Positions 30,911 to 50,500 are shown, counted from the first letter of the stretch. The stretch: DNA of 64,000 nucleotides from an uncultured virus (IMG/VR IMGVR_UViG_3300025652_000046) (IMGVR_UViG_3300025652_000046); one strand, 5' to 3'. The notes: a model not told the origin generated them from the letters alone. Numbers and translations: made by a program.

Positions 30911-31540
30911 TTATTCAGTAACTAAGAAACTTCTGTCTTCTGATTCGACAGTCATAGTTCTGATTGAGGGTGCGGTGATGTTAATGACTTGTATACGTTT
31001 GTTCCAATTTAATGTTACTGACTTACTCACTAGGCCATCATCGAGTTTGTCCCAATTGAAAACCACACTGATAGTTGTGATCGGTTTATTTTTATTCCAA
31101 TCCAATACTATAGATTTACTTACTGGGGAATTTGCTGCGAGCTTATTCCAATCTAATGCAGTCTGCTTAGAAACTGATACGAGCTTATTCCAATCTAATA
31201 CTATAGATTCACTTACTGGGGAATTTGTTGCGATCTTATTCCAATCTAATGTAGTCTGCTTGGAAACTGATACGAGCTTATTCCAATCTAATACTATAGA
31301 TTTACTTACTGGGGAATTTGCTGCGATCTTATTCCAATCTAATGTAGTCTGCTTGGAAACTGATTTTAGCTTATTCCAATCTAATGTAGTCTGCTTGGAA
31401 ACCGATTCGCGCTTATCCCAGTCTAATGTAGTCTGCTTAGAAACTGATTCGAGCTTATTCCACTCAACCAGTAACGGTTTAGATAATGGGGTAGTGGCTA
31501 CAGACCAATTATTCAACCCTCCCCATACATTTAAAGACAT
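30911..31540 (-). CDS. Trp-repeat protein (VSK....DWNK units)
   Basis: about 11 repeats of 14 or 17 aa. Confidence 0.7.
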   Translation of the reverse strand: MSLNVWGGLNNWSVATTPLSKPLLVEWNKLESVSKQTTLDWDKRESVSKQTTLDWNKLKSVSKQTTLDWNKIAANSPVSKSIVLDWNKLVSVSKQTTLDWNKIATNSPVSESIVLDWNKLVSVSKQTALDWNKLAANSPVSKSIVLDWNKNKPITTISVVFNWDKLDDGLVSKSVTLNWNKRIQVINITAPSIRTMTVESEDRSFLVTE

Positions 31541-33305: not shown

Positions 33306-34556
33306 TTATCTTTCTCTTACTTGCCAGTTTGAATCCAGCTCCAGTGTACAATCCCCTGTCCCACTCTCGTTAGACACTTCCCAAAATACATACTCATTTT
33401 GGTTTAGTATTGCTGATGTAGTACCTGTGTAGAATGCTACATCACGGCCACCTGAGAGATTGTTTATAGGACGCGTATAAGAGCGCACTATTGTCGGTGT
33501 GCCGCCCGAGACCTTAACTAGGGATATTTTGTAGTCGTTGTTTGCTGTACCTTCTAATACAAAGTTGTGTAAACAAATGTACTCAATTGGTTTTATACCA
33601 ATGTGTCTAAGCTGGCCGTTAGCCGGGCTGTCAAAGTGCTGCAAATCAGAGGCCCCGAAAGTACCTGCTATTGGTAGAGGTGCATTCTGTGTTACTATCT
33701 CAGTTAATACTTCTAAATCGCACTGTGTACTACCACCAACGAATGTATTTGATATACCGAGGTTGTTAGTCCAATCACATGCTAGATTTGAAGCTAGTAG
33801 GTTGCTGAATATATTTACATCATTTGCATCAAATACACCATCACGGCTAAACAATGCTCCTTGAATCTGCACTGTTGAGGGGTTAGGGAACATAGCTGTT
33901 GTGAAGTCGCAGAACGGTTGTAATGTCCCTAAGTCACAGTTAATGTCTGTTAAGAATCTAGAGTTCATTTGAAATGCAGTACCAGCTTTAAACAGTGGTT
34001 CTGTAGTTGTATCACTCATAGACCTGACGATAGATGTTGTTATTCTAAAACCACCTACCCATGTACCATGTAGGGTCAACGATGGTGAACCTCCGAATCT
34101 ACCAGTACCAGTTTCAAGACCCTGTCTGTAGTTATAGATGTCACCTAATGAAGTACAACCATTATAATTGACACGTGAGAATTCAAACGCGTTGAAGCCT
34201 GTTGCATCTGTTAGGTCATACACTTTAGAGTTTGTACCTGATGTTGTTATACTGTAATCTTGCCCTAATACATTCCCAGAACCACCTACCGGAGACACAA
34301 ACATGGTGTAGTTATCTTCACTAGATATTAGTTGAGAGATATCAAAGCTACCACCGCGTAAGTTCAATCCAGTTGAAGGTACTTCTATTGTCTGTGTACC
34401 CATATCGATAATACCATCTATGTAATACTCTATGGTACTGTCCAGTATGCCTGCTAAATCACTAGCTTTCGTTACTACTGTACGAGTGGCTAATGTTTGT
34501 CCGTTTTGCCCCGCCTGGCTGGGTATCATCCCAGGGGAGTTGTAAGTTAAAGACAT
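33306..34556 (-). CDS. Putative virion fibre/appendage protein 2
   Basis: N-terminus MSLTYNSPGMIPSQAGQ shared with 34653-36872; beta-rich. Confidence 0.6.
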   Translation of the reverse strand: MSLTYNSPGMIPSQAGQNGQTLATRTVVTKASDLAGILDSTIEYYIDGIIDMGTQTIEVPSTGLNLRGGSFDISQLISSEDNYTMFVSPVGGSGNVLGQDYSITTSGTNSKVYDLTDATGFNAFEFSRVNYNGCTSLGDIYNYRQGLETGTGRFGGSPSLTLHGTWVGGFRITTSIVRSMSDTTTEPLFKAGTAFQMNSRFLTDINCDLGTLQPFCDFTTAMFPNPSTVQIQGALFSRDGVFDANDVNIFSNLLASNLACDWTNNLGISNTFVGGSTQCDLEVLTEIVTQNAPLPIAGTFGASDLQHFDSPANGQLRHIGIKPIEYICLHNFVLEGTANNDYKISLVKVSGGTPTIVRSYTRPINNLSGGRDVAFYTGTTSAILNQNEYVFWEVSNESGTGDCTLELDSNWQVRER

Positions 34557-34652: not shown

Positions 34653-36872
34653 TTAAATAATTTCGTAGTTAGCAGGTTCTAGTACATATGACACATAGCC
34701 GTACGTATCAGGAACACTTAAAGTTAAGAGGTCAGCTGTAGTTTTTGGTATTTTAAAACCACCAGCAACATCACCGATGTCTACCTGTAAAGCTATTGGC
34801 GGTGCAAATGTACCATACGTCACATTGAGTAGTGGAGCTACCGAAGCATACCACACAAGCCCTGCGTCACCTGTATCAAAAGTAGATTCTACTGATACTA
34901 AATACTTAGCTGTTTTAAGATAACCAATGTTACCACTAACGTTTGTGTTGACTATGATAGTTAAGTTATACAGACCTGCCTTGTTAAAAGGTATCTGCAT
35001 TTTCTGAACACCACCACCAGTTACCCAAGGAAACGGTCTACGTACTTTTGAATACGTTACGTTTGGTAAGTAATTTTGTGGTGTAGGTGTGTTTGGGTCT
35101 ATTTCAGTGTACTCATATAATGGCGCACTAAGTGACTTATTATCAAAATTATCTACCCTAATTGTTGTACTAGGATTAGAGTTTGTTACACCTATCAAAG
35201 CCTGTGTTGAGGCCTGTGCTCCTCCGTCAATATGACCTTCGAAGAAACCCCCAGCGATTGTAAACTCTGTTGGTAACGTACCATCAATTACTGCTAATGC
35301 TCGTTCCCATACAAATTCACTAGGTTCATGGAGTACATCAGTTTCAAGCTTGTCTATGGTTACAGAAGCATTTTTTACGTAAAAACCTTTCGATGTAGTA
35401 CCCTGGCTTAACTCTGCTATTGCTTGTTGTTTAATAGAAATCGTACCGATCTTAAGTTTGTTACCTGCCCCAGTTACTATACCAGCCCAACCATCATAGT
35501 TATTCGCATCGATTCTACCAATGCTAACATCAGATGATATACCTGCAATATCTATAATTGCTAGAAACGATGCCATAGTACCCTGTGTCTTAGATACTAA
35601 TCTGTCAATCCTAAAGTTAGTAGGAGCCGCAGTACCTGCAACGGTTAGCGGAGCATACTTAGTAAAGTTACTTTGGTAAAGCCCAATATCTATGTTATCA
35701 GGTGCGCCTGAAACGTATAACCCAAAGTTAACATCAAAAGTGTATATCTCACTTAACATTATATTAACACAGTCTCCGAAGTCAATAGCTTTAAGAGTAC
35801 CAGAGTCAAAAATTATTTTACTAATTTGACCATCTGCTGCCCCATCACCAAGTCGCAACCCTACCGATGCAGCTAACCATAGATCACTTAGCACGAATCC
35901 TGGGACTCCAGATACTTCAACCGCTATATTAGAGTTCTGTGGTACAACAACCATGCTCTTTAGCAATGGTGCAGGGTCCCTTACATAAATTCCTTTAGTT
36001 GGGAATGCAGTTAAATCCGTAGTATTACTAAAATCTTCTAATTCATACTGGGCCCAACCTTCTGTACCAAGTAAGTAGTCAATTAAACATTTTCCTATAG
36101 ATACGGCAGGTATGACATTAGCGTTGGCACCACCACCACCCAATTGTGGAAACTCTGATGTGCTGTTTAGAATAAGAACCTTACTGGCTCCTTGTTCATC
36201 TCCAAAGCTAGTCATACCTTTTGGCACTGTGTAACCACTTGAAAGGTTATACTCTCCAGACTCAACCTTAGTTGCCCAAGTAAGCGTCTTAGCCACATAT
36301 CCAACTGAGTTGGTGTATACGGTCGTATCGTTTACCCAACCACCTGGGTCATCTCTGTTACCATAGAAGTTCTTTAAAACGACTCCTTGGTTCAGTAAAG
36401 TTGAAGGATCATACGATAGACGCCTAGCATCCCATTCTGAACGTAAAGATAAATGAGCTGCTCTAAATGCGCGAGTATTGTCTGCCGCCACACCTGTACC
36501 GTCAAAAGGAATAGCTCCAGTATAGTCGTAAGGGATTGCACCACACTGTTGTACACCTATTACTCCGTTAGTTGGGAGTAGCATAGCTATCTTTCCACCA
36601 ATTAGGTCATGGTCTCTCCAACCATCTCCAACAGACAGACCTGAGTATAGTTCGTATTCGGCGGGTTCTAATATGAGATACGAAGAACCTCCATAAGGTT
36701 TGCTGTTGTAGTATGCAGCAGTAGTCACCACTTTATTAACTAGTTCTGCTGCGTTGGTTATAGCTAGTAGTGCTGCTACTGATTCAAGCTCTAGTGAAGA
36801 ACTTTGCAATGCTGCTCCTGCTTGCCCTGCCTGAGAAGGTATCATACCAGGGGAGTTATAGGTTAAAGACAT
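34653..36872 (-). CDS. Putative tailspike/depolymerase-like appendage protein 1
   Basis: V.Q.GA...DG...DNT.AF.AA motif typical of the start of pectate-lyase-like beta-helices; start taken at MSLTYNSPG. Confidence 0.65.
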   Translation of the reverse strand: MSLTYNSPGMIPSQAGQAGAALQSSSLELESVAALLAITNAAELVNKVVTTAAYYNSKPYGGSSYLILEPAEYELYSGLSVGDGWRDHDLIGGKIAMLLPTNGVIGVQQCGAIPYDYTGAIPFDGTGVAADNTRAFRAAHLSLRSEWDARRLSYDPSTLLNQGVVLKNFYGNRDDPGGWVNDTTVYTNSVGYVAKTLTWATKVESGEYNLSSGYTVPKGMTSFGDEQGASKVLILNSTSEFPQLGGGGANANVIPAVSIGKCLIDYLLGTEGWAQYELEDFSNTTDLTAFPTKGIYVRDPAPLLKSMVVVPQNSNIAVEVSGVPGFVLSDLWLAASVGLRLGDGAADGQISKIIFDSGTLKAIDFGDCVNIMLSEIYTFDVNFGLYVSGAPDNIDIGLYQSNFTKYAPLTVAGTAAPTNFRIDRLVSKTQGTMASFLAIIDIAGISSDVSIGRIDANNYDGWAGIVTGAGNKLKIGTISIKQQAIAELSQGTTSKGFYVKNASVTIDKLETDVLHEPSEFVWERALAVIDGTLPTEFTIAGGFFEGHIDGGAQASTQALIGVTNSNPSTTIRVDNFDNKSLSAPLYEYTEIDPNTPTPQNYLPNVTYSKVRRPFPWVTGGGVQKMQIPFNKAGLYNLTIIVNTNVSGNIGYLKTAKYLVSVESTFDTGDAGLVWYASVAPLLNVTYGTFAPPIALQVDIGDVAGGFKIPKTTADLLTLSVPDTYGYVSYVLEPANYEII

Positions 36873-36882
36873 TAAGCAACCC

Positions 36883-37170
36883 CTATATCGAGATACCACA
36901 AACAACAGCGAGACCGCTAGTGTTCGTAACATTTACTTTAAATTCAACAGCAGTAACTACTTCTTGTATTACACTAACACCTGTAGCAGTTAGTACATCT
37001 ATAAAATCCATAGAGGCATCAATACGTGCTTGTAACACAACGATATCTCCTGTATTAACCTTGGCTTGAAAAACACAGGTACGATTGTTTATACTGTCTC
37101 GTTGAACAGGGGAGCTAGAATAAGAGGTAGTGTTTACCTCCGCATAGAATTCTTTAAATTTGTTAGACAT
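36883..37170 (-). CDS. Small virion/adaptor-like hypothetical protein
   Basis: AAGGAG RBS; beta-rich 95 aa. Confidence 0.6.
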   Translation of the reverse strand: MSNKFKEFYAEVNTTSYSSSPVQRDSINNRTCVFQAKVNTGDIVVLQARIDASMDFIDVLTATGVSVIQEVVTAVEFKVNVTNTSGLAVVCGISI

Positions 37171-37194
37171 AAATGTCTCCTTGTTAGTGGGTAT

Positions 37195-37671
37195 CTAGAT
37201 TGTTGGAAGGGCTGGCCAGATTACGTCATCTAGTCGCGCTGTTGATGTAGCTATAGTAGAAGGTAAATCCCTTAGCTGTTGTCTATAAACTGCTGCTTCC
37301 TGCTGTTGTATCGATGAAAGGGGAGAGTCCGGGAGTATCATCCAGTCTGTCTCTAAGAGCTTGAAATCTCTCGTCACTCTCACCTCTGCTAAGAATGCAT
37401 CAGTATCCCAACTCCAACCGTGAGGTTCTAAAGTTGTGTCCCAGAATGACCAAGGGTTAGGAGGGAAAGGTACCTGCTTCCACCAATCAGTTTCGTCACT
37501 CCATATATAGGTTCTTAGGAATTCTGAGATGTCAGCTGCTTCTTCTAAGCTGTATACTCTGTGGATAGTCAAGCCGTCTACTTGTGTACCGTCTTCTCCA
37601 TAACTTCCTGAGTCAACTTGTGTTATTTGTATTACGCCTGAATCATCATGTAATGCTATTAAAGGTATCAT
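37195..37671 (-). CDS. Tail fibre assembly chaperone-like protein
   Basis: RD..L.ETDW..LPDSP....YRQQLRDLP....WP. Confidence 0.85.
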   Translation of the reverse strand: MIPLIALHDDSGVIQITQVDSGSYGEDGTQVDGLTIHRVYSLEEAADISEFLRTYIWSDETDWWKQVPFPPNPWSFWDTTLEPHGWSWDTDAFLAEVRVTRDFKLLETDWMILPDSPLSSIQQQEAAVYRQQLRDLPSTIATSTARLDDVIWPALPTI

Positions 37672-37697
37672 ATTTTTATCCTGTTAATTATTTATGT

Positions 37698-38426
37698 TTA
37701 AAAAGGTTTACCACGTATCAGGTATTCGCTAGCGTATCGTGTATAAGTACCAAGAACGCTTTGCTGCCCAAAGTGAGAGATACCAACACCTGAGAAAGTA
37801 TTAGGCGAAGGTCCTGCTGCATTGTAACTTCCTGTGGTGTTAGAAAAAACCATACCTATACTACCGAGGGCACCACCTCCTGATACCATGCCAAATCCTG
37901 CCGCAGGGTACCACTCATCATTATTTATTGTACCGAAAGTGCTAGTGTGGGTAAAACGAGTAGTCCACATGTTATCCACTTGTATTTGATTTGCCGAAAC
38001 AAAAGATCTACTATCAAAAGTCTTGATGGTATAAGCTCCTGACACAGTGTAGGCCTGTAAACCATAGTCTCCTGTAGGAGAATCATTAGTCATAGGCCGA
38101 ACTACTACGTAGTCTACAGTTGTGGGTGTAGTACCGAGGTATCCAACAATGTGAAACTGGAGCTTATAACGTAGAGGACTGGTGGTCCACGTAAAAGACC
38201 TCCCTGTAACTTGAAACATTACGCCCGAGGAAACTGTACCTGTGGGTCTAAAGAGCACTACGTCTCCTGGTTCATATATAACACCTGCGGCACCGTCAGT
38301 AGGGGTATAAGTATTCACGCTAGCAACTGTACCTGACTGTACTGTACATACTCCTTGATAATATTCAGTACTATCAAAGAGTTTAGCACCTGTTGTTCCT
38401 GAAAATGTTTGTATTCCAAATCCCAT
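37698..38426 (-). CDS. Tail tip-associated protein
   Basis: two (F/Y)G(I/L)Q....G....FDS repeats; located in the tail cluster. Confidence 0.65.
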   Translation of the reverse strand: MGFGIQTFSGTTGAKLFDSTEYYQGVCTVQSGTVASVNTYTPTDGAAGVIYEPGDVVLFRPTGTVSSGVMFQVTGRSFTWTTSPLRYKLQFHIVGYLGTTPTTVDYVVVRPMTNDSPTGDYGLQAYTVSGAYTIKTFDSRSFVSANQIQVDNMWTTRFTHTSTFGTINNDEWYPAAGFGMVSGGGALGSIGMVFSNTTGSYNAAGPSPNTFSGVGISHFGQQSVLGTYTRYASEYLIRGKPF

Positions 38427-38428
38427 AA

Positions 38429-38728
38429 TTACCTCGTAAATGCTACATAAAAGAACACTTGACTACTAGTTGCCGTATTCTTGATTTTAAAACCGTCAGT
38501 GATCCTGTTTAGTATCTCATAGTTATCAACAACAGGGGAAGTTAGACTAGGGGTAGGTGCCTCATATACGTATATGTAGTCCACTGCTACTGCAATAATG
38601 TTTGCAGAAGTAACCCCTGCTGCCAATGAAACTTCACCGCTGGCGGTCACTTTTAAAAAGTCATCCATAACAGAGCTATCGAAGGCTAAGTAACCACCAG
38701 CATCGAAGCATTGTAAACCGTATGCCAT
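38429..38728 (-). CDS. Small tail tip-associated protein
   Basis: MAYGLQCFDA.G...FDS, a type commonly found after gpJ-like genes. Confidence 0.65.
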   Translation of the reverse strand: MAYGLQCFDAGGYLAFDSSVMDDFLKVTASGEVSLAAGVTSANIIAVAVDYIYVYEAPTPSLTSPVVDNYEILNRITDGFKIKNTATSSQVFFYVAFTR

Positions 38729-39621
38729 TCTTGTATCCTCCTATTGTGTAATCTGTTTTCTTCTTTTAAACCTTTCATGTGAGCTAATAGAACTCTCATC
38801 CATTTTATAAAACCTACACCATCCCCAGCATAGCTTGTTGCAACTGCAACCCCTGAGATTCTACCATCATACATGTAAGTAGGACGGGATTCATCATGGT
38901 ATACTAATGTAAGAACTTCTCTTTCGTGTAAATCTTTTAATTCTAAGTACTGGAAAGTGTCTTCTCCAACTATGAGGTCTTTGTTATACCTCACTTGTAA
39001 GGTTTTCTTTGACATGAAAACAACACGAGCGGCGAGTTCGTCTATGCCCATTCCATACTCTAATAAACTAATATACTCTTTAAAATCTGGCTTAGCCTCA
39101 GCCAAATTATCGTGCCCTAAGAGGCCTCCTTTCTTTAGAATAGACCAGTCTACTACCGTGGCAGCAATTGCTGTTTTCATAGGAAGGGTATCAGGGTCTA
39201 AGTGCTGTCTACTAGAGTCTACAAGAAGAGAACGTGTTACCAAGTTATCGGGCCAGGAAACAGTTATAGCTCTACTCAAGACTACTGCATCTGGTGGACT
39301 GTCGGAGGCGGCTAGCTCTTTATAGAATTTTACACCTCTATTTGTTAGATAGTCATCACCATCAATTAGTACCGAGTAGTCATTCTCATCCTTCTCAAAT
39401 TGATCTAGGAAAGAGTTTTTACCAGTAGCTGCGGTACCATCACTGTCTGTTATGAAACAGCGAATACCTTCTTCTTCACAATAAGCTTCTGCGGCAGCTT
39501 GGTGCTCTTTATCTAGGGTATTTATTATTACTGTAGTGTCTTCTTTATCTAAAGTTCTAAACTGCCTCTTTAGAGCATATATGTTGTGACTTGTTAATAC
39601 ATAGAATATTCTAGCCTGCAT
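38686..39621 (-). CDS. GT-A fold glycosyltransferase-like protein
   Basis: GKNS, Y..LIDGDDYL (DxD), later GED; start taken at MQARIF. Confidence 0.7.
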   Translation of the reverse strand: MQARIFYVLTSHNIYALKRQFRTLDKEDTTVIINTLDKEHQAAAEAYCEEEGIRCFITDSDGTAATGKNSFLDQFEKDENDYSVLIDGDDYLTNRGVKFYKELAASDSPPDAVVLSRAITVSWPDNLVTRSLLVDSSRQHLDPDTLPMKTAIAATVVDWSILKKGGLLGHDNLAEAKPDFKEYISLLEYGMGIDELAARVVFMSKKTLQVRYNKDLIVGEDTFQYLELKDLHEREVLTLVYHDESRPTYMYDGRISGVAVATSYAGDGVGFIKWMRVLLAHMKGLKEENRLHNRRIQEWHTVYNASMLVVT

Positions 39622-41512
39622 AGTATTCACCTTCTCCTTGATAACGGGCAGACCATACAACTAAGCCATATTTAGTCCCTGATTTCATAGGGAGGCTTTC
39701 GTGAGGGTGAGTCACCTGGGCGGGCCACATTATAAGTTCGCCTGCTGCGTGATTACCGTTGTTCATTTTCTGGCGTGGGAAGTTTAATTCACCACCTTCG
39801 AAGTCAGCATTTAGCTTACAAGCAAAGCTCACTTGGGACATATCGTGGTGCAGGGGTAAAGAGGTCTGCGACTCGCTTGAGTATTTAATTACAAAACAAT
39901 CTCGCAACCCATGCATCTTCAAACACGGCCAATTATTTTGTGCTATTGGGGTTAATGTGTCGTTGAATAGTGCTCTGAACTCTTGTATAAAGCTTTGATC
40001 CTTTAATTGATTCAATCGAATCTCTTGGCCAGGGTACTGATCTCCTGGGAGCGATTCCCAGTTACCATCAGCTTCACAAGCGTCAATCAATCGTCTACAC
40101 CAAGCCTCAGGGATTAACCCGTTGATACCTAGTATCTCTTGGCCCACCGTAAGTTGCTTGTATTCAGGATGGCGAGTGTCTCTTAAAAGACCATTGGTAG
40201 TAGTATACAAATCTTCGAATATCTGTTTAGTCTCTTCACCACCGTTACCATGTATTACACAAGTGGTACAACGGTTCTCTGAGTTTATGATCCAACCACT
40301 GTCTAAGCGAATAGAGTTTTCCGATGCGGATAAGCAAAAGAAAATGTAGCTCTCGTGATCTAGTACAGCGTTATACATTCCTGTTACGAATTGTTTTTGT
40401 ACGTATAACTGATCATCCTCGTGGTTCTCTATAGGTGCTGAGAACATTTTACGTAGTTCTCTTACTGTACCAATAAACGTACCACTGTTTAAAAACCTGT
40501 AACCGTTATTCGGTTGTGGAAAATGTACTTCCATTGAGGTATCTGGCCAGCAAAGTTTCTCTGCGGAGAACACAATCTCCTTACCAAAGCTATAGTACCT
40601 TTCCATTATAACATCTTCATCAACATTTATGAATGTGTCATATCCATCTAGAAACATAACAACATCGTTGTCATTAAGGGTCTCTAAATGCTTTTTAATT
40701 AGATTAATTTTCTGACCACCGCCTGGGCCAAGTGCCATGTTGCCACCTTCCCACTTAACACCCGCACCTAAGTTAGTGATGTTATAGCGTTTGTCGTCTG
40801 TTAGTTTACGAGTTTTGCTCTCGTCTGTTCCTACTGTTATTACATGTAGCATGTGATCTTCCCATATATCTGTTAATGATTCAGTTTCGCTCGTATCAAA
40901 AGCGCCCGGCTCAGGGTCAATAATGTTGTCCCTGAATGCCGCTGCTTTAAAGTATAGTTTTTGATTTAGTGCTTCCCACCTATGTTGATCTAGTATCGCG
41001 GGGAGTACTTCATCCGCAGGAATAAGGGGGTTATTCTTGCAGTAGTCTAGTAACGCCTTTGCTACCTTTGGTTTTATATAGTAAGCGTTAGTCCAGTAGC
41101 AAAAGCCACCTGTTTCAAGAAGAGCATCTAGCTGTACAGCCTCTCCTGAAACATGATTCTTACTCAAGTATAGAAAATCGTAAGTATCAGAGTAACCCTG
41201 CACAAGCGCCTGGTAGTCTCTGTTATTAATTACACAATCGTCTTCTAACACTATAATACCTTCGTTTGCTGCTACACAAATCTCCCAAATTTTAATATGA
41301 GATAAGATACACCCTACTTCACCTTTAGTCATACGCCGATTGTGATAAGGATCTCTCCAATAACGATCTGACGTATAGGGCATTATAGAAGAGGGAGTGT
41401 GTTCCTTACCATCAACCGCTGGAATACGGTAGGCGTTAGGGAAGAGCTTTTCCGTTTTAGCCCGTTTGTCCTTACACCGATCGAGGTTAATAAAAAACTC
41501 TTTTATCGACAT
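39611..41512 (-). CDS. Three-domain collagen-modifying enzyme: GT25 (COLGALT-like) + PLOD-type glycosyltransferase + 2OG-Fe(II) lysyl hydroxylase
   Basis: RDPYHNRRMTKGEVGCILSH/EDD/YWT.AY/PADEVLP; W.GG....GGGQK/MFLDGYD/FSAE..CWP/FLNSG.FIG/DDQL; FVIKY...Q.SL.LHHD/FEGG/THPHE.LP..GTKY. Confidence 0.9.
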   Translation of the reverse strand: MSIKEFFINLDRCKDKRAKTEKLFPNAYRIPAVDGKEHTPSSIMPYTSDRYWRDPYHNRRMTKGEVGCILSHIKIWEICVAANEGIIVLEDDCVINNRDYQALVQGYSDTYDFLYLSKNHVSGEAVQLDALLETGGFCYWTNAYYIKPKVAKALLDYCKNNPLIPADEVLPAILDQHRWEALNQKLYFKAAAFRDNIIDPEPGAFDTSETESLTDIWEDHMLHVITVGTDESKTRKLTDDKRYNITNLGAGVKWEGGNMALGPGGGQKINLIKKHLETLNDNDVVMFLDGYDTFINVDEDVIMERYYSFGKEIVFSAEKLCWPDTSMEVHFPQPNNGYRFLNSGTFIGTVRELRKMFSAPIENHEDDQLYVQKQFVTGMYNAVLDHESYIFFCLSASENSIRLDSGWIINSENRCTTCVIHGNGGEETKQIFEDLYTTTNGLLRDTRHPEYKQLTVGQEILGINGLIPEAWCRRLIDACEADGNWESLPGDQYPGQEIRLNQLKDQSFIQEFRALFNDTLTPIAQNNWPCLKMHGLRDCFVIKYSSESQTSLPLHHDMSQVSFACKLNADFEGGELNFPRQKMNNGNHAAGELIMWPAQVTHPHESLPMKSGTKYGLVVWSARYQGEGEYYAG

Positions 41513-41577
41513 TGTGGACCCTCTTCTAACTGTAGATTCTTTCTCATATCATTATTCCTTATATTTAGTTTAAATTA

Positions 41578-44500
41578 TTAGGCCAGGTTGCCTATCTTAA
41601 CACGGATGACTCCTGTGCCATCTCTGATTTCAATACGGTTACTAGCACCATTCATATTTATAGAGTTATTACCAGTACCATTAGATACGGTGCTTAGCTT
41701 AACCCAAGTACCCACATCATTGTACACCCACATCTGGTCTGTTTGTATGTGCCAGTAGATATCGTATTCTTGTACAGGGGAGCCCTTAATAGCAAGGATC
41801 ATCGCAGCGGCTTCTGTAGGGTTAGCTATTGATGCACCTGTATCGATAGCAACAGTAGCGCCGGAATCTCCAGTGTCCCCTGTAGCACCTATGACCCCCT
41901 GAGGGCCAGTTGGTCCTTTAAGACCTTTAACACCTTGTGGACCTTGGAGACCTTGAAGACCTTGAAGACCTTTGAGACCTTTGAGACCTTGGGCACCTTG
42001 TGCACCTTGGAGACCTTGGAAACCTTGGAGACCTATGATACCTTTGAGACCTTTCTGACCTTGAAGACCTTGGAGACCTTGAAGACCTTGTGGACCTAAG
42101 ATACCTTTGAGACCTTTCTGACCTTGGAGACCTTGGAGACCTTGAAGACCTTGGAGACCTGTAATACCTTTGAGACCTTTCTGACCTTGAAGACCTTGGA
42201 GACCTTGAAGACCTTGTGGACCTAAGATACCTTTGAGACCTTTCTGACCTTGGAGACCTTGGAGACCTTGAAGACCTTGGAGACCTGTAATACCTTTGAG
42301 ACCTTTCTGACCTTGAAGACCCTGGAGACCTTGAAGACCTTGTGGACCTAAGATACCTTTGTCACCTTGGAGACCTTGGAGACCTTGGGCACCTTGTACA
42401 CCTTGTACACCCTTGACGCCAATAACACCTTGTTCCCCTTTAGCACCAGTTGGACCTTGAGCACCCTCTACTGTGAACGGGCCTGTGAAATCAGCAACCG
42501 TAATGTTAACAGCCGCATCAGTAACAGCATATCTCTGCCATCTTATACTAGTAACACCACCAGGTACCTGAGTAGGATTTGGCCACCAGAAGTAAGTACC
42601 TCCAGCAGTTGCCCACTGATTCGAAGACAACGGAGCAGTACCCGCTATGTCTAAGTCTGAAATTATTTCTTCAAAAGATATATCAGTGATGGCTAGATTT
42701 TGCGTATAAACGGAACAATCGAAACGGTAAGTACCACTTGGTGCAGCTGAGGAAGTGTATATTACAATCCCATTTTTTAAGTAGGTTACTACGGTTCCAT
42801 CATTTACTACAGCAAGAATATCTCCAGGTAGATAAGTAGTAACTGGAGTACCACTTATATTGACTCCTTCTTCAAAAATCCATAAGGAGTTACTAGCCCC
42901 ATAAATAGCATAGTCGATTTTGTCGAAGTCAGGATCAGTACCTGGATCATTAGACATACCAAATATAACTTGTTTAGTTGGTGTGCCAGCGGTAGTGTCT
43001 GGAAAAGTAGCTGTAGAAGTACAAGTAGTATAAGCCTGTGGCGAATAAGCACCTGCATTCCAATCTGGGCTAACCGATGTTTTGGTAAACGTGGTACCAA
43101 CCATGCTACCCGTGGCAATATTTGAAGTGACAAAGGTAGTTGCCTCTGGCTCTAAATAGTCTATCGGAGCGTTAGTGTAATAGGAGAAGTTAGTTTCTCC
43201 GGTATTACCTACAGCGCCCTGTAAACCTTGACCACCTTGTGGACCTTGAGGACCTTGTACACCTTTGATACCAATGTCACCTTTCTGACCTTGGAGACCT
43301 TGGGCACCTTGGAGACCTTGTGAACCTAAGATACCTTTGAGACCCTTGTCACCTTGGAGACCCTGGAGACCTTGTGGACCTAAAACACCTTTGATACCTT
43401 TGTCACCCTGGAGACCTTGTAGACCTTGGAGACCTTGGAGACCTTGGGCACCTAAGATACCTTTGAGACCCTTGTCACCTTGAAGACCCTGGAGACCTTG
43501 AAGACCTAAAACACCTTTGATACCCTTGTCACCTTGTAGACCTTGTAGACCTTGGAGACCTTGGAGACCTTGGGCACCTAAGATACCTTTGAGACCCTTG
43601 TCACCTTGAAGACCCTGAAGACCTTGAAGACCTAAAACACCTTTGATACCCTTGTCACCTTGTAGACCTTGAAGACCTTGGGCACCTTGGAGACCTTGGA
43701 AACCTATGATACCCTTGATACCTTTGTCACCTTGGAGGCCTTGGGCACCTTGTAGACCTTGGAAACCTAAGATACCTTTGAGGCCTTTGTCACCTTGGAG
43801 ACCTTGTTCACCTTGGAGACCTTGGAAACCTACGATACCTTTGAGACCTTTATCACCTTGTTCACCTTGGAGACCTTGTATGCCTTTATCTCCTATCTCA
43901 CCTTTAACGCCTTGGTCACCTGGGATACCTTGGGTACCTTGGATACCTTTAACGCCCTCAGGCCCTAAGTCTCCTTTGACTCCCTCAGCACCTTTGAGGC
44001 TGATATTAGAAACGTTTACAGGTCCAATTACAACTGAGTTGGTAGACCTCTTTCCTGTTAGGCTAACTGACCTAATACGGTAGTATATATCAAGCTGCGG
44101 GTTTCCGGGTATGTGGTAAGTTATCTCATTTGAGGTTTCACTAATAGTTACCCATTGGTTGTCATCTGTGGCAGCATTCTCACGAGCTTCAACAATATAC
44201 TTGTCTACTTGGCTGCCGAACACATCTCCATCCCAACGAATAAATACCCGTTGTTTATCTTCATCTACATAGTAACCAGTCACTGTATCAGTGTCTAAGT
44301 CTATTACTGGAATAGCGGTGTTAGATATGAATGGTGGGAAGGTCTTGTAACTAACGATAGGTGGATATGTACTGGCTACCGTATCTGCTATGTTCCATGA
44401 CAAATCAGTAGCGTTAACACGGAAAGCCTCAATCCTTACGGTCATGTTCTCAGTAAGGGTAACTCCTGTTACCAATGCGGTATCGTCATCACTTGTTAGA

Positions 44501-46266
44501 TCATTTAGAACTGAGTTGAACTTTATGTAGTCACCCGGTTCCAGATTGTAGGCCTCAGCGAATGTCTCAAATTCATATATGACAGAGCGCCTGGACTCAC
44601 GAACAAATTGCTCTGCTCTTGAAGTAGCGTGGTAAGGGTCTACGATAGCGTCTATAGTTAGCGCAGCATTCAGTACAACCCCATTATCCTCAGCTAAGAG
44701 TTGGTCATGTAGAGCAGAGCCTGTTGGAGGCCAAGTAGCACTTGCTGAACTAAAATCTTCTTGCTCATTTCTATAATTGACTGTACACTGGTTCAAACGT
44801 TCTGTGGCTTTAGGATAGCTAATTTTAATCTCTGATGTACGTAATATGTCATCTGTGATTATAAGGGTACCCTCTGCGCTAGCTTTTAGTTCAGCTTGGG
44901 TTGCAGGGTACTGTAGCTGTAGCTTATACTTGCCTTCCGACCATACCAGATCCGCATTACCCATACCCAGTAGAATCTCATCTACGTTATCCCTTACAGG
45001 TTTTGATGGATCTAGAGTTACATTACACTCGTATAACGGTAGTGTATCTGCTGGTGTTATCGTCTCTACCCATACCAGTGAGGATTCCTGTACAAGGAAC
45101 TCAGTATTGATATCAATAACATCCGCATTAGGACCTGGGACGATACTTGATATTGGTATATTGAAAGTATTAGTAGACGCCTCATAGTAAGCGCCAACGG
45201 TTTCGGTTATGCTGTATATATTGTCTCCACCTCTATGGAACGACAAACCGCCTGCATCTGAAGCGGCAAACACACCTGTGCCATTAATGAAGTCTGTTCC
45301 AAAGTCCTCTATACTTACCTCAACATCATTACTAGATTCAAGCTCTAAGTAGTCAACATTCTGCTGAGTGGACAAATTCACACCCGATGCATGCCACGAA
45401 GGTGACGTTGCGCTATCGAAGTAATTACCGCCATCAATCTTACCTTGTCGTGCGAATCCGCCCAGCCCTAACTCAGGGTTGACAGTCGAAGCACAAAGGA
45501 CAGCGGCATTATAGAAGGACTCTAGGTTAACATCTTCTAATGCTAGCCCCATGCCGTAGTGGGCAGTCAAGTAATCTAGTAGTACCAGCGCAGCGTTGTT
45601 AGAATATGTTAAAGTACCTGCACGATTATAAGAATAGAAATAAGCACCAGGACTACCAATCCTCCCGATATTAGGAATCTTCTTTCCTTTTATGAAGAAG
45701 CTCATAGCTGGTATACCAGAGTACTGAGGTTCATTATTGTCTAAGTGGAATATACCAGTACAATAGGCAATCTCTGTAAACTTGTTATTAGCATTCATAC
45801 CATTGGCAGTGGCCAAGGGGTCAGCTATCCCTCCGTCTGGGAAGGTACGTAGCATCTGCCCGAAATGCAGGGATTCATTATGGAAGTCTTGATCATCTAC
45901 TTCTATATGTGTAAAGCTTTCTATACCTCCCTGACATACAGCATATTGGCATGTTAAGAACTGGTTACGCCTTGATTTTGATTTGCTGTGAGTTATACTG
46001 GCACCCATGTCTCTAACAGACCACTGCTTAGTCCCTGCTGGTAGTGTACCGTCATACGTATAAGAAGAGGATGTTTTTGCTGCGGTAAGTACTGCTCCTA
46101 CTTTGTTCCTACCGTAGCATATGGGAAGGGACCGTGTTTCACCAGTGACGGTTGCTAGGAAGCCTTTACGCGCTTGCGCATCTGCCTCCATCCTTTTTTT
46201 CATTTTGGCTTGTTTCGAGTAAGTGAATACCGCAGAAACAATTGCTATTACAAGACTCCATGCCAT
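41578..46266 (-). CDS. Tail tip / central fibre protein (gpJ-like) with FN3-like domain and two collagen tracts
   Basis: LPICYGR, SNNAALVLLDYL...YG.G, LEPGDYI, YYRIRSV..G..S; Gly-X-Y tracts; C-terminal RVKIGNL; follows the Dit and gpL-like genes. Confidence 0.88.
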   Translation of the reverse strand: MAWSLVIAIVSAVFTYSKQAKMKKRMEADAQARKGFLATVTGETRSLPICYGRNKVGAVLTAAKTSSSYTYDGTLPAGTKQWSVRDMGASITHSKSKSRRNQFLTCQYAVCQGGIESFTHIEVDDQDFHNESLHFGQMLRTFPDGGIADPLATANGMNANNKFTEIAYCTGIFHLDNNEPQYSGIPAMSFFIKGKKIPNIGRIGSPGAYFYSYNRAGTLTYSNNAALVLLDYLTAHYGMGLALEDVNLESFYNAAVLCASTVNPELGLGGFARQGKIDGGNYFDSATSPSWHASGVNLSTQQNVDYLELESSNDVEVSIEDFGTDFINGTGVFAASDAGGLSFHRGGDNIYSITETVGAYYEASTNTFNIPISSIVPGPNADVIDINTEFLVQESSLVWVETITPADTLPLYECNVTLDPSKPVRDNVDEILLGMGNADLVWSEGKYKLQLQYPATQAELKASAEGTLIITDDILRTSEIKISYPKATERLNQCTVNYRNEQEDFSSASATWPPTGSALHDQLLAEDNGVVLNAALTIDAIVDPYHATSRAEQFVRESRRSVIYEFETFAEAYNLEPGDYIKFNSVLNDLTSDDDTALVTGVTLTENMTVRIEAFRVNATDLSWNIADTVASTYPPIVSYKTFPPFISNTAIPVIDLDTDTVTGYYVDEDKQRVFIRWDGDVFGSQVDKYIVEARENAATDDNQWVTISETSNEITYHIPGNPQLDIYYRIRSVSLTGKRSTNSVVIGPVNVSNISLKGAEGVKGDLGPEGVKGIQGTQGIPGDQGVKGEIGDKGIQGLQGEQGDKGLKGIVGFQGLQGEQGLQGDKGLKGILGFQGLQGAQGLQGDKGIKGIIGFQGLQGAQGLQGLQGDKGIKGVLGLQGLQGLQGDKGLKGILGAQGLQGLQGLQGLQGDKGIKGVLGLQGLQGLQGDKGLKGILGAQGLQGLQGLQGLQGDKGIKGVLGPQGLQGLQGDKGLKGILGSQGLQGAQGLQGQKGDIGIKGVQGPQGPQGGQGLQGAVGNTGETNFSYYTNAPIDYLEPEATTFVTSNIATGSMVGTTFTKTSVSPDWNAGAYSPQAYTTCTSTATFPDTTAGTPTKQVIFGMSNDPGTDPDFDKIDYAIYGASNSLWIFEEGVNISGTPVTTYLPGDILAVVNDGTVVTYLKNGIVIYTSSAAPSGTYRFDCSVYTQNLAITDISFEEIISDLDIAGTAPLSSNQWATAGGTYFWWPNPTQVPGGVTSIRWQRYAVTDAAVNITVADFTGPFTVEGAQGPTGAKGEQGVIGVKGVQGVQGAQGLQGLQGDKGILGPQGLQGLQGLQGQKGLKGITGLQGLQGLQGLQGQKGLKGILGPQGLQGLQGLQGQKGLKGITGLQGLQGLQGLQGQKGLKGILGPQGLQGLQGLQGQKGLKGIIGLQGFQGLQGAQGAQGLKGLKGLQGLQGLQGPQGVKGLKGPTGPQGVIGATGDTGDSGATVAIDTGASIANPTEAAAMILAIKGSPVQEYDIYWHIQTDQMWVYNDVGTWVKLSTVSNGTGNNSINMNGASNRIEIRDGTGVIRVKIGNLA
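41854..42465 (-). repeat. Collagen tract 2 (about 68 Gly-X-Y triplets)
   Basis: 9-nt tandem units with 63/126-nt higher-order period. Confidence 0.95.
43192..43992 (-). repeat. Collagen tract 1 (about 89 Gly-X-Y triplets)
   Basis: GLQ/GDK/GLK/GIK/GIL triplets. Confidence 0.95.
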
Positions 46267-46944: not shown

Positions 46945-47562
46945 CTATAATGCTTCAATGAGGTTTATTGTTCCCATCTCGGATAGGATGCCATCAGTGT
47001 AAGTGATGCCCTGTACGTTAGTTATATCTCTATAAGCCGTGAATGTTATATTGTCTGTTATGTCTCGGTAAAGAAACGAGGTAGCGTTAGGTACCGCTGT
47101 TCTTAAGCTCGGATAAATATTTAGCGTGCCATAACCAGCTCCAGCAGAGGTGGTAGTGCTAGTAACTAAATAAATTTTATCGTGGTTAGCGAACTTTACA
47201 AAACGGCCTTTGTTAATTGTCTCACCCGTAGTCATACCAGTTAATGCAACACTACTATCCCCAGCAGCATGATTTGTAGAAACTGTCAATGCGCTATTAC
47301 TAGTACCTTGTAGTATGGTCTCACCACGAACATTCAGCTGTGGCATTTCGAGATTCACTACATCATGGAACCCTGTAATCATATCTGCAAAGGTAGATGT
47401 AGCATCAGTCATTACTACTTTAAATTCCATCTCCCATCTTTGTGCGCCTTGTTTTACTCTACGGACTTTTAATGTTACAGTATCCGCAGAGAAAACAGGT
47501 TCATTAGATGAGATACGGAATGGAGTTACGATTTCCTGTTCTTGGAAGTAATATACTGCCAT
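46945..47562 (-). CDS. Distal tail protein-like
   Basis: follows tape measure; QRWE, G.F.KF.NH.KIY, I.P.LR. Confidence 0.75.
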   Translation of the reverse strand: MAVYYFQEQEIVTPFRISSNEPVFSADTVTLKVRRVKQGAQRWEMEFKVVMTDATSTFADMITGFHDVVNLEMPQLNVRGETILQGTSNSALTVSTNHAAGDSSVALTGMTTGETINKGRFVKFANHDKIYLVTSTTTSAGAGYGTLNIYPSLRTAVPNATSFLYRDITDNITFTAYRDITNVQGITYTDGILSEMGTINLIEAL

Positions 47563-47573
47563 TCCTTTTCTCC

Positions 47574-50500
47574 TTATTTTCTGTTTTGTTCTTTATTTTG
47601 TTGGTTAACACCTTGAGCGATAGTCGGCATCATACTATAGATTTCTTTCTTAGTTTGACGTGAGATATCACCTGTGACATTAATGCTTATTTGCTGTTGA
47701 TTTCCTGCTTGTCCATTTCTTGAACGGTCAAGTTCACCGAAAAGATTAGATTGCTGCCTTTTGTTGAGAATCATTTCCCCACCATGAGCAATTACAGGAG
47801 TAGGTCCGCCACCAGGTACTAAGCCGCCATCATTGAAGAATCCACCAATAGCAGAGAATATACCGCCGCCACCTTCACCGCCGCCAAATAAGCCGCCAAG
47901 AGAACCTAGTAGATCACCACCACCTCCACCGCCGCCAAATAAGCCGCCAAGAGAACTTAGTAAGCCACTGAAAACACCGCCAAAGCCACCGAGTAGCCCA
48001 TCGAACAAGCCACCTAATCCGGGTAAAAAGCCATCGAATATTTTACCGATGCTACCAGCACCTGCGTCCATACCTGCTTCTACTCCTTCACCTGCTCCTT
48101 CAGCAGCACCTGCGCCGCCTCCTGTGAAAGCTGCGAAAGCGCCACCTGTGTAATCTTTAGCACTACCACCTTCGCTTTTGTCTCCTGCGAAAGCTGCGAA
48201 AGCGCCACCTGTGTAATCTCCGGCACTGCCACCTTTACTTGGTGCTTTATCTTCCTTTCCACCGCCAAAGCCAAAGATTCCGCCAAGAGAAGAGAGTATA
48301 CCACCGCCTTCCTCGCCGCCAAAACCTAGCATGCCTATATCAGAAAACATAGTTTCTAGTGCTTTTGAGAAATCGCTAGCTTCACCGTCTACGTTATTAA
48401 AGATACTTTCAGTAATACCACTAGCTAAAGTATCTAATACAGTACCCGTGAAAGAGTCTAACAGACCATTTGCAAAACCCTTAAAGTCAGTCTCGCCTTT
48501 AAGCAGACCTCCGATACCTGATTCTACATCTCCCTTAATTTTACCAACTCCTTTTGAAGCCAGTGCTGCAATTGCGGGAATCACTACCTTAGTATTTTCT
48601 GCAACATCTTCGAGGATAGCAGATACATTTCCTAATTGGGTGATAAGGTCGTTATCCAAGATTTTAAGTTGGCTTAACAGTTGGAGAGGTACTTTCTCGT
48701 TACGCTTCTCCATCTCAAAAATCTTAGCTTGTACCTTATTACGACTATCGCTAAGATCCAAAAGTCTCTTAGTCAAGCTAGCATTTTCAGCAAGTTCTTT
48801 TGCTAAGACGTCAGTGTCTAGTGTTTGATCTGATAACGTTTTAGTCAACGAGATAATGAGATCATCAGCGCTAAATATACTATCACTAGCCTTTGAACTA
48901 TCTCCACCGAAAGCATTAAAACCTTTTAAGATAGTATCTTTTAATCCAGAGATAACCTTAGATACACTGGCATAGTTCTCTTTACCAAGAAGAGACTCAA
49001 GCATGGACCCTAATGATTCAAGTGCCGACATGAATAAATCACCCATTCCACTTAACACACCGCCACCGCCAGAAGAGGTTGCACTGCTAGAGCTACCTAC
49101 ACTACCGCCACCAGCGAAACCTGGAAGTTTACCTGTGGAGTTAAGCTGTTCTAAGAAGGGGCGATGTTCAGATGCCACTGATGTCTTCATGACAAACTCG
49201 CCATTAGACAACATAGCGGGAATAGAATCTGAAGTAGCTGAGCCTGCACCAAATACAGAACCGCCATTTGCACGTTTAACAGGTGCTATAGGTTTTTCAT
49301 TTGTTTTAGTGTCTGATCCACCGCCGAAACCGAAGGCACTCTTGATGTAAGAGAGGATAGTAGAACCCATCTCCGAAGCGAGGTCTACTAGACCACTTAA
49401 ACCATCGAGTATGGAATCCGCGAAAGTAGTACCTGCTTCTTTTAACCACGTCATACCTTCAAATATAGCACCACCTAGTTTACGACCTACCTCCTCGAGG
49501 AAGTCAAATCCAGCTCTAATGTATCCCATCAGAACTTCGCCTGCTGCCATTATCTCATCGCTAAGCAGGTATGCAATAACGGCAATTGCCCCTACAAGTG
49601 CTGCTACAAGTCCAATAACAAGAAGAGCCATACCACTTATCGGAGCCATTGCTAATAAGAATGCAGCGCCTTGGACAGCAGCGAGGAAAACAAGTGAGGA
49701 CGCTGTCATTATAGAGGAAGCTGCTAGCGTAATAGCTGCGCCTGCGGTAGCTCCTGCGATCTGTGCGCCTATCATAATGGCTCTTACGGCTACGAATGAG
49801 GCCATAATGCCAACTCTCAGAGCTGCTGCGCCCGCTAAAATGCCTACACGCATAGCAACCAGGAGAGTTTTTGTAAGTAATACGAAGCCCTTACCGATGA
49901 ATAGTAATGCCTTACCTGCGCCAACAAACACACTCGTAATCATTGGGGTTAGTAGGCCTGTAATTAGCATCTGAAATGTAGCAGCGGTCACTTGAAAGAT
50001 CGCCTGAACAATACTCCCTACTATTAGTTGTCCAAGCTGTGCTGCTATGAGAACACTAATCATAGTCTCAGCGCTGTTCATGCCAAATGTCTTAGCGGCT
50101 TTAGCCATCATACCCGCGCCCAGGAAACCACCTACCGTTCCACCTATCATTCCGCCTAACCTACCGAAAGCACCGATAGCTGCGGATAGTGTTTCTTTGA
50201 GCCTAGAATTAGGACCGTCTAGTAGTTGTGAGTTAATCTGCAACTTCTTTTGGTTCATTTGTATCGAATTAACAAGTTTGGTGGTTTCGGCTTTCTCTTG
50301 CGCTTTCAGCCCAACTAGCTCCTGGTTTATCTTATTGGCTCTCGCTGACGTAGTAGCTAATCCTGATAACTCAGATTCTAATCTCAGTTTCTGTCCTCGT
50401 ATAGATTCTTTTAAACCTCCAAGTTCGGCGTTTAACAGCTGGCCTTGGGCTTGTAGTCCTCGAATAAAACCGCCAGCCGCTCTTCCTTGCCAAACATCGC

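Follow-up and report, generated by a model that had tools for sequence, protein, structure and literature searches.

The locus studied here raises the question of whether a tailed phage could hydroxylate and glycosylate the collagen lysines of its own tail tip. It lies in a stretch of 64,000 nucleotides from an uncultured virus (IMG/VR IMGVR_UViG_3300025652_000046), which is called the window below and from whose first letter positions are counted. In this window, the gene of a tail-tip or central-fibre protein with two collagen tracts (41578-46266) is followed directly downstream, in the same late operon, by an open reading frame (ORF) of 633 amino acids (39611-41512) with three modules: a COLGALT-type glycosyltransferase, a PLOD-type glycosyltransferase and a lysyl-hydroxylase-type oxygenase. 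Read from its sequence, this one polypeptide would cover the whole collagen-lysine pathway of animals. On the evidence assembled below, it is considered likely that the enzyme hydroxylates lysines in the collagen of the tip protein and attaches sugars to them. Every long ORF of the window, and every feature for which window coordinates are given here, is on the minus strand.

The collagen tail tip and the three modules of the enzyme

The proposed substrate is a protein of 1562 amino acids that comes after the tape measure, the distal tail protein and a tail protein of 183 amino acids, and that matches the Pfam families Collagen and Phage-tail_3. Residues 1-758 (43993-46266) form a gpJ-like N-terminal anchor, for which the Phage-tail_3 match is just over the Pfam cut-off (E 1.3e-5, 25.6 bits, cut-off 23) and the nearest ESM Atlas clusters are those of Phage-tail_3 and tip attachment protein J (score 0.92); a search of the PDB with the N-terminus gave no sequence match. 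The anchor is followed by collagen tract 1 (amino acids 759-1025, 43192-43992), a non-collagen middle domain (1026-1267, 42466-43191), collagen tract 2 (1268-1471, 41854-42465) and a C-terminal domain of 91 amino acids (41581-41853). The middle domain has no Pfam match, and weak relatives of it were found within collagen fibre proteins of three other loci (L082, L033 and L016). The C-terminal domain gave a sub-threshold Big-like match alone.

The original prediction, which was made from the DNA of the window, had estimated the two tracts at about 89 and 68 Gly-X-Y triplets, and both numbers proved to be exact. The two runs are uninterrupted, and the Pfam Collagen match has an E-value of 6.7e-75, so the tracts are far beyond chance; in addition, no other run of at least five Gly-X-Y triplets was found in any frame of the window. 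Long uninterrupted tracts of this kind are those of a collagen triple helix, and the tip protein is predicted to be a trimer.

Lysine occupies the Y position in 41 of the 157 triplets and the X position in none. The other frequent residues are Gln (84), Leu (11) and Thr (9) at Y, and Leu (64), Ile (20) and Asp (16) at X. The lysine triplets are those that had been named beforehand, GLK (13), GDK (11), GQK (6), GVK (5) and GIK (5), together with a single GAK. The tracts had also been described as poor in proline, and Pro was indeed found 11 times at X and once at Y (12 of 314 X and Y positions). In both tracts (41854-43992), the lysine triplets mostly form doublets of the type GDK-G(L/I)K-G(I/V)(L/I), which are separated by (GLQ)n runs; the predicted modification sites would therefore be periodic along the helix.

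The enzyme gene had been expected to encode a lysyl-hydroxylase domain and two glycosyltransferase domains, and all three were recovered. The N-terminal module (amino acids 4-181, 40970-41503) is a GT25 domain of the COLGALT type, a predicted hydroxylysine galactosyltransferase, in which Pfam Glyco_transf_25 covers amino acids 4-169 (E 3.2e-24, 86.3 bits against a cut-off of 24). The middle module (220-427, 40232-40855) is a glycosyltransferase of the PLOD/LH3 type, a predicted galactosylhydroxylysine glucosyltransferase (GGT), and matches Pfam GT_PLOD (PF25342) over the same residues (E 2.5e-49, 168.1 bits against a cut-off of 27). The C-terminal module (450-633, 39614-40165) is an oxygenase dependent on 2-oxoglutarate (2OG) and Fe(II), which has a Pfam match near the cut-off and is assigned to the lysyl hydroxylase (LH) type by its matches to LH3 and L230. 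The family phrog_61 covers the enzyme over almost its full length, and NCBIfam has no model for it. A reading of the enzyme as part of a defence system was also considered and rejected, PADLOC having given a generic 2OG match (E 1e-7) and a weak match to DpdC (6.5e-4).

Comparison of the whole enzyme with the sequences of the PDB retrieved human LH3 (in its glycosyltransferase and LH stretches), mimivirus R699, COLGALT1 and mimivirus L230, whereas bacterial GT25 enzymes were far weaker. The glycosyltransferase part matched LH3 with an E-value of 1e-27 and R699 with 3e-27. The GT25 module was much nearer to the catalytic domain of COLGALT1 (E about 1e-16) than to bacterial GT25 enzymes (E 3e-6); the alignment covered COLGALT1 residues from about 316 to 507 and placed the vlEDDc motif of the enzyme on vfEDDl of COLGALT1. 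The C-terminal 194 residues, searched alone, retrieved LH3 and L230 exclusively (six of six sequences at E<=1), and the LH module matched L230 with an E-value of 1.7e-6.

The predicted structure pointed in the same direction. The AlphaFold2 (AF2) model of the enzyme, built on 25 homologues, had a predicted local distance difference test score (pLDDT) of 89.8 and a predicted template modelling score (pTM) of 0.70, and its best Foldseek match was full-length LH3 (E 3e-30). The next matches of the model were the human GGT domain 6wfv (template modelling (TM) score 0.83, root mean square deviation 2.2 Å), R699 and COLGALT1 (2.4-3.1 Å). L230 was matched by the model with an E-value of 1e-12 and a TM score of 0.78, and the prolyl hydroxylases were weaker (E 1e-7 to 1e-8, TM 0.58-0.69). 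The proposed comparison with LH3, COLGALT1 and L230 therefore relates all three modules to these enzymes by sequence and by modelled fold, and it extends to the catalytic motifs.

In an alignment of 25 enzyme homologues (37-74% identity), the invariant residues included E90, D91 and D92, which are the EDD motif of the GT25 module; W254, D289, D292, D366, D367 and H421 of the GGT module, in which Y291 and W322 were at least 90% conserved; and the Fe triad H555, D557 and H604 and K614 of the LH module, in which H602 was invariant or at least 90% conserved. HMMER aligned W254, D289, Y291, D292, W322, D366-D367 and H421 to LH3 W75, D112, Y114, D115, W145, D190-D191 and H253, and aligned H555-H556-D557 and H604 to LH3 H667, D669 and H719. 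In LH3, the glycosyltransferase site consists of a DxxD motif with a His that binds Mn, a Trp and a Tyr that stack on uridine diphosphate (UDP), a gating Trp and an acidic pair (PMC6082870), and the Fe(II) triad is formed by His667, Asp669 and His719 (PMC6082870). In COLGALT1, Mn is bound at the Glu-Asp-Asp motif (PMC12003778).

The architecture of the enzyme is its own. The non-catalytic GT1 domain is absent, so that the two-domain architecture of COLGALT is represented by the catalytic GT2 equivalent alone; the GT25 module is therefore regarded as working like COLGALT and not as a COLGALT orthologue in architecture. The order GT25, GGT and LH, with neither the accessory domain of LH3 nor the GT1 domain of COLGALT1, is unlike that of any solved relative.

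Repeated tight coupling of the enzyme to collagen genes with lysine at Y

The enzyme belongs to a large family. A word-indexed search gave 946 protein clusters at E<=1e-10, and among the best 120 of these nearly all proteins had 600-660 amino acids and the same pair of Pfam domains. These 120 clusters carried no name, the name hypothetical, or the name 'GR25 family glycosyltransferase involved in LPS biosynthesis' (LPS, lipopolysaccharide). An exhaustive search of representatives at 50% identity gave 218 at E<=1e-30 and 1048 at E<=1e-10, which included shorter GGT plus LH and GT25 plus GGT forms as well as longer forms. In IMG/VR, a scan with the single sequence gave 3 loci, and an alignment-based search, which was used instead, gave at least 528 enzyme loci. 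In GenBank phages, 11 enzyme records were found that represent five distinct phages, and the carriers are the Synechococcus phages S-PRM1, S-CAM9 and S-8S53/55/56, a marine single-cell virus fragment and Roseobacter phage CRP-6. The enzyme is annotated there as hypothetical or as a 2OG-Fe(II) oxygenase, and PHROGs files phrog_61 under moron / auxiliary metabolic genes.

A collagen 'tail fiber' gene lies one to four genes upstream of the enzyme in S-PRM1, S-CAM9, S-8S55 and CRP-6, with Lys at Y in 23 of 59, 22 of 59, 24 of 55 and 26 of 99 triplets, respectively. In the fifth GenBank carrier, a fragment of 8.3 kb with 1.8 kb upstream of the enzyme, no collagen tract was seen. Two further features of these phages were observed. 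Two small 2OG-Fe(II) oxygenase genes stand between the collagen gene and the enzyme in S-PRM1 (L001:8845-10010), S-CAM9 (L003:8695-9860) and S-8S55 (L334:8728-9908). Moreover, about half of the triplets in the collagen tracts of S-PRM1 and S-CAM9 carry Pro at X, and prolyl hydroxylation may therefore occur there too.

Co-occurrence in IMG/VR was surveyed in the best 80 of the at least 528 enzyme loci, a collagen ORF being defined by a run of at least 8 triplets. A collagen ORF was present in 54 of the 80, always on the strand of the enzyme, and 17 of the 26 loci without one had less than 2.2 kb of upstream DNA. When the survey was confined to the 50 testable loci, which have at least 2.5 kb upstream, a same-strand collagen ORF was found in 41, in 40 of them within 2 kb upstream. 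Grouping of the enzymes into clusters at 70% identity or more gave 19 testable clusters, 16 of which have a collagen gene. The expectation that related phages would carry the enzyme and Lys-Y collagen together was thus borne out in 41 of 50 IMG/VR loci (16 of 19 clusters), four of five GenBank phages and 11 of the 14 bacterial loci described below, and homologues mostly without collagen were not what was found.

As a control, phage collagen genes were collected from IMG/VR by a scan for the Gly-codon pattern that ignored the enzyme, which gave 130 loci. The fused enzyme was found in none of these 130 control loci, 80 of which were examined over their full flanks, and two of them have a lone GT25 or a lone 2OG oxygenase. 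For the statistics of Lys at Y, ORFs of fewer than 20 triplets and near-duplicates were dropped. The 42 enzyme-linked collagen ORFs that remained comprise 6270 triplets, with Lys at Y in 1393 and at X in one; the fraction of Lys at Y per ORF has a median of 0.20 (interquartile range 0.18-0.31) and is at least 0.10 in 90% of them. In the 111 control ORFs, 501 of the 10312 triplets carry Lys at Y and 92 carry it at X; the median fraction at Y is 0.00, and Y-position Lys is absent altogether from 53% of these ORFs. The difference is associated with Mann-Whitney p = 3e-14 for all controls and p = 7.5e-12 for 49 GC-matched control ORFs (median again 0.00), although the IMG/VR loci are phylogenetically related and these p-values therefore overstate independence; the count of 16 in 19 clusters is the more conservative measure of the coupling. 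Outside the tracts, the frequency of Lys is nearly alike (3.9% in enzyme-linked and 2.6% in control proteins). A second background of 80 marine loci with a GT-A glycosyltransferase gene included 22 with a collagen ORF of at least 15 triplets, and one of these 22 has 10% or more Lys at Y. Across the carriers, Lys at Y is the sole residue that tracks the enzyme.

No diversity is claimed for the IMG/VR collagen carriers. The view that they represent many unrelated families was dropped, since single-linkage BLAST of their non-collagen parts placed 48 of 58 in one cluster. The gpJ-like N-terminus of the window was found in none of the 80 enzyme loci. A tail-fibre assembly chaperone of the same family as that of the window stands between the collagen gene and the enzyme in seven loci (L005, L006, L015, L016, L020, L023 and L027).

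The same enzymes were also found in bacteria. When one genome was scanned for each prokaryotic species, 28 loci were obtained, 14 of which encode GT25 plus GGT modules, with the LH module either fused behind them or encoded by a separate ORF of about 200 amino acids, mostly in front. Collagen ORFs with Lys at Y adjoin 11 of these 14 loci, and none has Lys at X; examples have Lys at Y in 18 of 52, 34 of 97 and 31 of 118 triplets. Many of the carriers are metagenome-assembled genomes titled as sponge-associated, such as Poriferihabitaceae, Porisulfidus and Arenicellales (L307-L320). In the two annotated loci, L311 (8263-11973) and L316 (8038-16671), the collagen proteins end in a YadA_anchor domain and are therefore trimeric autotransporters; their flanks hold housekeeping genes and not phage genes, and L316 has three collagen genes, for proteins of 626-659 amino acids, interleaved with the enzymes. 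A further 13 bacterial loci have a stand-alone GT_PLOD-like domain and no collagen nearby. This bacterial pairing provides independent support for the view that the enzymes go with the collagen tract and not with a particular phage protein.

The predicted pathway and its alternatives

The occurrence of the modification, the identity of its sugars and the purpose of the glycan are what we infer from these observations. Late in infection, the tip chains would be made in the cytoplasm of the host. The C-terminal LH module would then convert Lys in X-Lys-Gly, that is, at the Y position, into hydroxylysine on the unfolded chains, with Fe(II), 2OG and O2. The N-terminal GT25 module would add the first hexose to hydroxylysine, by homology galactose from UDP-Gal, and the middle PLOD-type GGT module would add the second, by homology glucose from UDP-Glc. 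Trimerisation of the modified chains would then give the tail tip a collagen fibre that bears glycans. Candidate purposes of the glycan are the solubility or stability of a helix that is poor in Pro and rich in Leu and Gln, shielding against proteases, and contact with the host. The neighbouring GT-A enzyme may lengthen the glycan or act on another target. Mimivirus L230 has been reported to hydroxylate collagen that was co-expressed in Escherichia coli (PMC9546862, PMC6783949), and a viral LH in the bacterial cytoplasm is therefore feasible.

Several points weigh against this reading. The Pfam match of the LH module to 2OG-FeII_Oxy_3 (amino acids 544-620, E 1.2e-5) reached 26.6 bits, which is below the cut-off of 27. 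Lys614, which was found in 25 of 25 phage sequences, stands at the position of the 2OG-binding Arg of LH3 (R729) and L230; it keeps the charge of the Arg that forms a salt bridge with the C5 carboxylate of 2OG, but the residue differs. Prolyl 4-hydroxylases have Lys at the 2OG-binding position. In addition, Leu576 is aligned to Cys691 of LH3. The specificity for sugars is not readable from the sequence, and mimivirus L230 yields glucosyl-hydroxylysine, not galactosyl-hydroxylysine (PMC9546862). The relatedness of the IMG/VR loci and the partial flanks of the control loci, given above with the counts that they limit, belong here as well. A literature search found no modified peptide, virion proteome or enzyme assay for the enzyme or its homologues.

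The collagen-less carriers also weigh on this side, as 9 of the 50 testable loci (3 of 19 clusters) show no collagen gene over the 3.5-10 kb upstream of the enzyme. When five records from these clusters, each 10-26% complete, were searched by pattern, the single Gly-X-Y match was a (GPQ)n tract without Lys (G004:C1:25092-25204, in the record behind L075). The surroundings of the enzyme differ among the three clusters. In six T4-like fragments (L064, L069 and L074-L077), it comes after a tail-fibre-like gene and a lone 2OG oxygenase; in L013 and L014, it stands beside ribonucleotide reductase, with another 2OG oxygenase downstream; and in L058, it stands beside neck genes and an FkbM methyltransferase.

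Some of these points would equally agree with an enzyme that acts on the collagen fibre by a different chemistry, namely on another residue or carbon, with one active transferase, or with other sugars. The replacement of the 2OG-binding Arg by Lys614 and the loss of the LH3 cysteine are in its favour, as are donor and acceptor specificities that cannot be derived from alignments, the direct glucosylation of hydroxylysine by L230 (PMC9546862) and the extra GT-A gene after the enzyme. However, the metal and donor motifs are kept in all three modules under strong conservation, Lys at Y is the residue that follows the enzyme, and Pro is rare in the tracts of the window, so we regard a different chemistry as unlikely.

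A quite different function would be that of a host-takeover or superinfection-exclusion enzyme which modifies LPS or another surface glycan of the host. The cluster names that refer to LPS biosynthesis and the PHROGs category agree with such a role, and in a study of pelagimyophages the glycosyltransferases of the tail-fibre region were read as modifiers of the O-chain (PMC7029224). Names of this kind have misled before, however, as mimivirus L230 and R655 were also first mis-annotated as LPS enzymes (PMC9546862). Furthermore, the GT25 module is far nearer to COLGALT1 than to bacterial GT25 enzymes and is fused to a PLOD-type glycosyltransferase and an LH, and the gene accompanies Lys-Y collagen genes in phages and bacteria alike, which makes a role at the host surface highly improbable. 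A non-catalytic factor for folding or assembly, which would bind the unfolded collagen of the fibre and keep its motifs for binding alone, is given very little probability, for although the enzyme stands among fibre assembly genes, often beside a tail-fibre assembly chaperone, and collagen-modifying enzymes do bind unfolded chains, the residues that bind metal and donor do not vary in any of the three active sites down to 37% identity, which is hard to explain without catalysis.

Genomic setting, known systems and significance

By its PHROG matches, the window has the layout of a lytic siphophage, with a GC content of about 41% throughout. These matches include portal, head morphogenesis, scaffold, major head protein, adaptors and major tail protein. 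The tape measure (47574-52325) is followed by the distal tail protein (46945-47562), the 183-amino-acid tail protein and the tip gene. Other genes with PHROG assignments are further fibre and spike genes, a single-subunit RNA polymerase, DNA polymerase, primase-helicase, ribonucleotide reductase and endolysin. A near-identity DNA search of GenBank phages with the window region gave no match, and one IMG/VR contig encodes the enzyme, the GT-A protein, the small proteins of 99 and 242 amino acids and the chaperone at 100% protein identity.

A scan with the N-terminal 750 residues of the tip revealed two collagen-free relatives. In these loci, L302 (tip 59% identical) and L303 (72%), the order of distal tail protein, 183-amino-acid protein and tip is kept, and homology to the tip of the window ends at amino acid 758, where the collagen begins. 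Within the DNA of these loci (L302:9974-15834, L303:2-4647), no collagen triplets in the tip, no enzyme and no GT-A gene were found, and the tip gene is directly followed by a homologue (70% identical) of the 95-amino-acid gene at 36883-37170 of the window. The proteins of 99 and 242 amino acids and the tail-fibre assembly chaperone, which together occupy 37195-38728, are likewise absent; the chaperone (37195-37671) is identified by Pfam Phage_tail_APC (E 2.4e-14). As the two relatives lack everything between amino acid 758 of the tip and the gene at 36883-37170, the window differs from them by one cassette. When 36883-43992 of the window is compared with these two relatives, the collagen part, the enzyme, the GT-A gene, the chaperone and the two small ORFs act as a single unit that can be exchanged.

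The gene after the enzyme had been proposed as a further glycosyltransferase gene, and this assignment stands. Its ORF spans 38686-39660, and translation probably begins at the ATG at 39621, with AAGGAG 12 nucleotides upstream; this start overlaps the last codons of the enzyme gene and gives a GT2-like protein of 311 amino acids (38686-39621). It matches no Pfam family, although 9 of 28 homologues weakly match PF00535; NCBIfam has no model for it, and its 133 homologue clusters are nearly all unnamed. An AF2 model on 28 homologues had a pLDDT of 91.8 and a pTM of 0.90, and the Foldseek matches of this model, all with a probability of 1.00, were TarP, AvpGT, TarS and SpsA (E 6.5e-8 to 8.6e-5) and chondroitin polymerase. 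The DxD motif expected of a GT-A fold was also present, D87-G-D89-D90 being invariant among the 28 homologues.

The place of this gene in the system is less certain. Relatives are encoded at 466 IMG/VR loci; among the best 80 of these, the enzyme was present in 6, always directly upstream, and none was seen in the other 74 within the DNA examined; the 311-amino-acid protein was therefore rejected as a dedicated fourth component. In L010 and L012, too, the enzyme has the GT-A gene behind it, at a distance of about 1.5 kb. The protein is thus a real GT-A glycosyltransferase that is associated with the system occasionally, and the gene may lie outside the system. Twelve marine loci (L227, L228, L230, L233, L235, L237, L238, L240-L243 and L246) have two copies of the GT-A family about 8-9 kb apart, and in most of them a collagen ORF that lacks Lys at Y lies close to one end; this glycosyltransferase family may therefore serve another modification of fibres.

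Downstream of the cassette, two proteins of 416 (33306-34556) and 759 (34653-36932) amino acids have a common N-terminal stretch, MSLTYNSPGMIPSQAGQ..., which begins at residue 21 in the longer ORF. Because of this stretch, they are suggested to be alternative receptor-binding proteins that share one module for attachment. In the same fibre region, a protein of 562 amino acids (31540-33228) has a SASA domain, of the sialate O-acetylesterase type of carbohydrate esterases (E 3.1e-6), and is possibly a tail enzyme that modifies the receptor.

The closest known systems are those of animals and giant viruses. Human LH3/PLOD3 and COLGALT1/GLT25D1 (6fxk, 6fxr, 8zgc, 9evj; PMC6082870, PMC12003778) have homologous modules for all three steps and share with the phage the X-Lys-Gly substrate motif in a collagen tract. 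In humans, however, these are two proteins in a complex, whereas the phage has one polypeptide of 633 amino acids, which lacks the LH3 accessory domain and COLGALT1 GT1 and has Lys instead of Arg at the 2OG position. The human system operates in the endoplasmic reticulum, whereas the phage enzyme is predicted to act in the bacterial cytoplasm on a Pro-poor fibre of the tail tip.

Acanthamoeba polyphaga mimivirus, a giant virus of amoebae, encodes L230 (LH and glucosyltransferase), R699 (GGT) and R655 (GT25-like) (6ax6, 9nev, 9dyt, 9crz; PMC9546862, PMC12279948) for its own collagen-like proteins. The LH and GGT modules of the phage are homologous to those of L230 and R699, as the E-values and the TM score given above indicate. 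The mimivirus enzymes are encoded by three separate genes, whereas in the phage the modules are fused and stand beside the substrate gene in the tail operon; and unlike the mimivirus case, the phage family is very common in marine phages, as the IMG/VR loci show. Mimivirus and other giant viruses are described as able to hydroxylate and glycosylate collagen of their own, and the collagens of bacteriophages are described in the same source as about 18 residues within capsid proteins (PMC8968730).

Prokaryotic parallels are more distant. For prokaryotes, Iyer et al. (2010; PMC2938197) predicted the hydroxylation of collagen-like or tail-collar proteins by 2OG dioxygenases encoded alongside them; the accessible parts of that paper concern other enzyme families, and they contain neither a PLOD-type LH with GT25 and GGT nor such a phage family. 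The literature search found no bacteriophage LH and no hydroxylysine glycosylation in a bacteriophage, subscription journals and supplements being outside its scope, and within that scope the original prediction that no such example has been characterised agrees with the record. O-glycosylated surface fibres and proteins are known from BclA of Bacillus anthracis and from virion proteins of mycobacteriophages; there the glycans are attached to Thr or Ser and no hydroxylase is known to be involved, whereas in the phage studied here attachment to hydroxylysine through a PLOD-type oxygenase is predicted. The tailed phage of the window thus probably glycosylates its own collagen fibre, by means of a fused enzyme with three predicted activities that would act on the tail; measurements of this chemistry have so far come from animals and giant viruses alone.

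A wider proposal is put forward tentatively, and we consider it possible but doubtful: full hydroxylation and diglycosylation of collagen lysines might not have been invented by animals and giant viruses but be a widespread trait of prokaryotes and phages, conferred by compact single-chain GT25-GGT-LH enzymes and used to build glycosylated adhesion fibres, namely phage tail fibres and bacterial trimeric autotransporters. This pool might then be the source or the closest outgroup of metazoan LH3 and COLGALT, and the abundance of the bacterial version in sponge symbionts might mark a route of exchange with early animals.

If the tip protein is modified as proposed, collagen that is glycosylated through hydroxylysine would be a feature not just of animals and giant viruses but also of ordinary tailed phages and certain bacteria, and the reaction would take place in the bacterial cytoplasm by means of one soluble polypeptide. 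One of the larger unnamed families of phage proteins, phrog_61, would gain a concrete role, and the reading of glycosyltransferases in phage tail-fibre regions would change. As cultured phage-host pairs carry the system, it is directly testable. Furthermore, glycosylated collagen has been described as not yet producible in bacterial expression, partly since the human collagen glycosyltransferases express poorly there (PMC9546862), and the enzyme could serve as a tool for this purpose. These findings would also bear on the origin of the collagen-modifying enzymes of animals.

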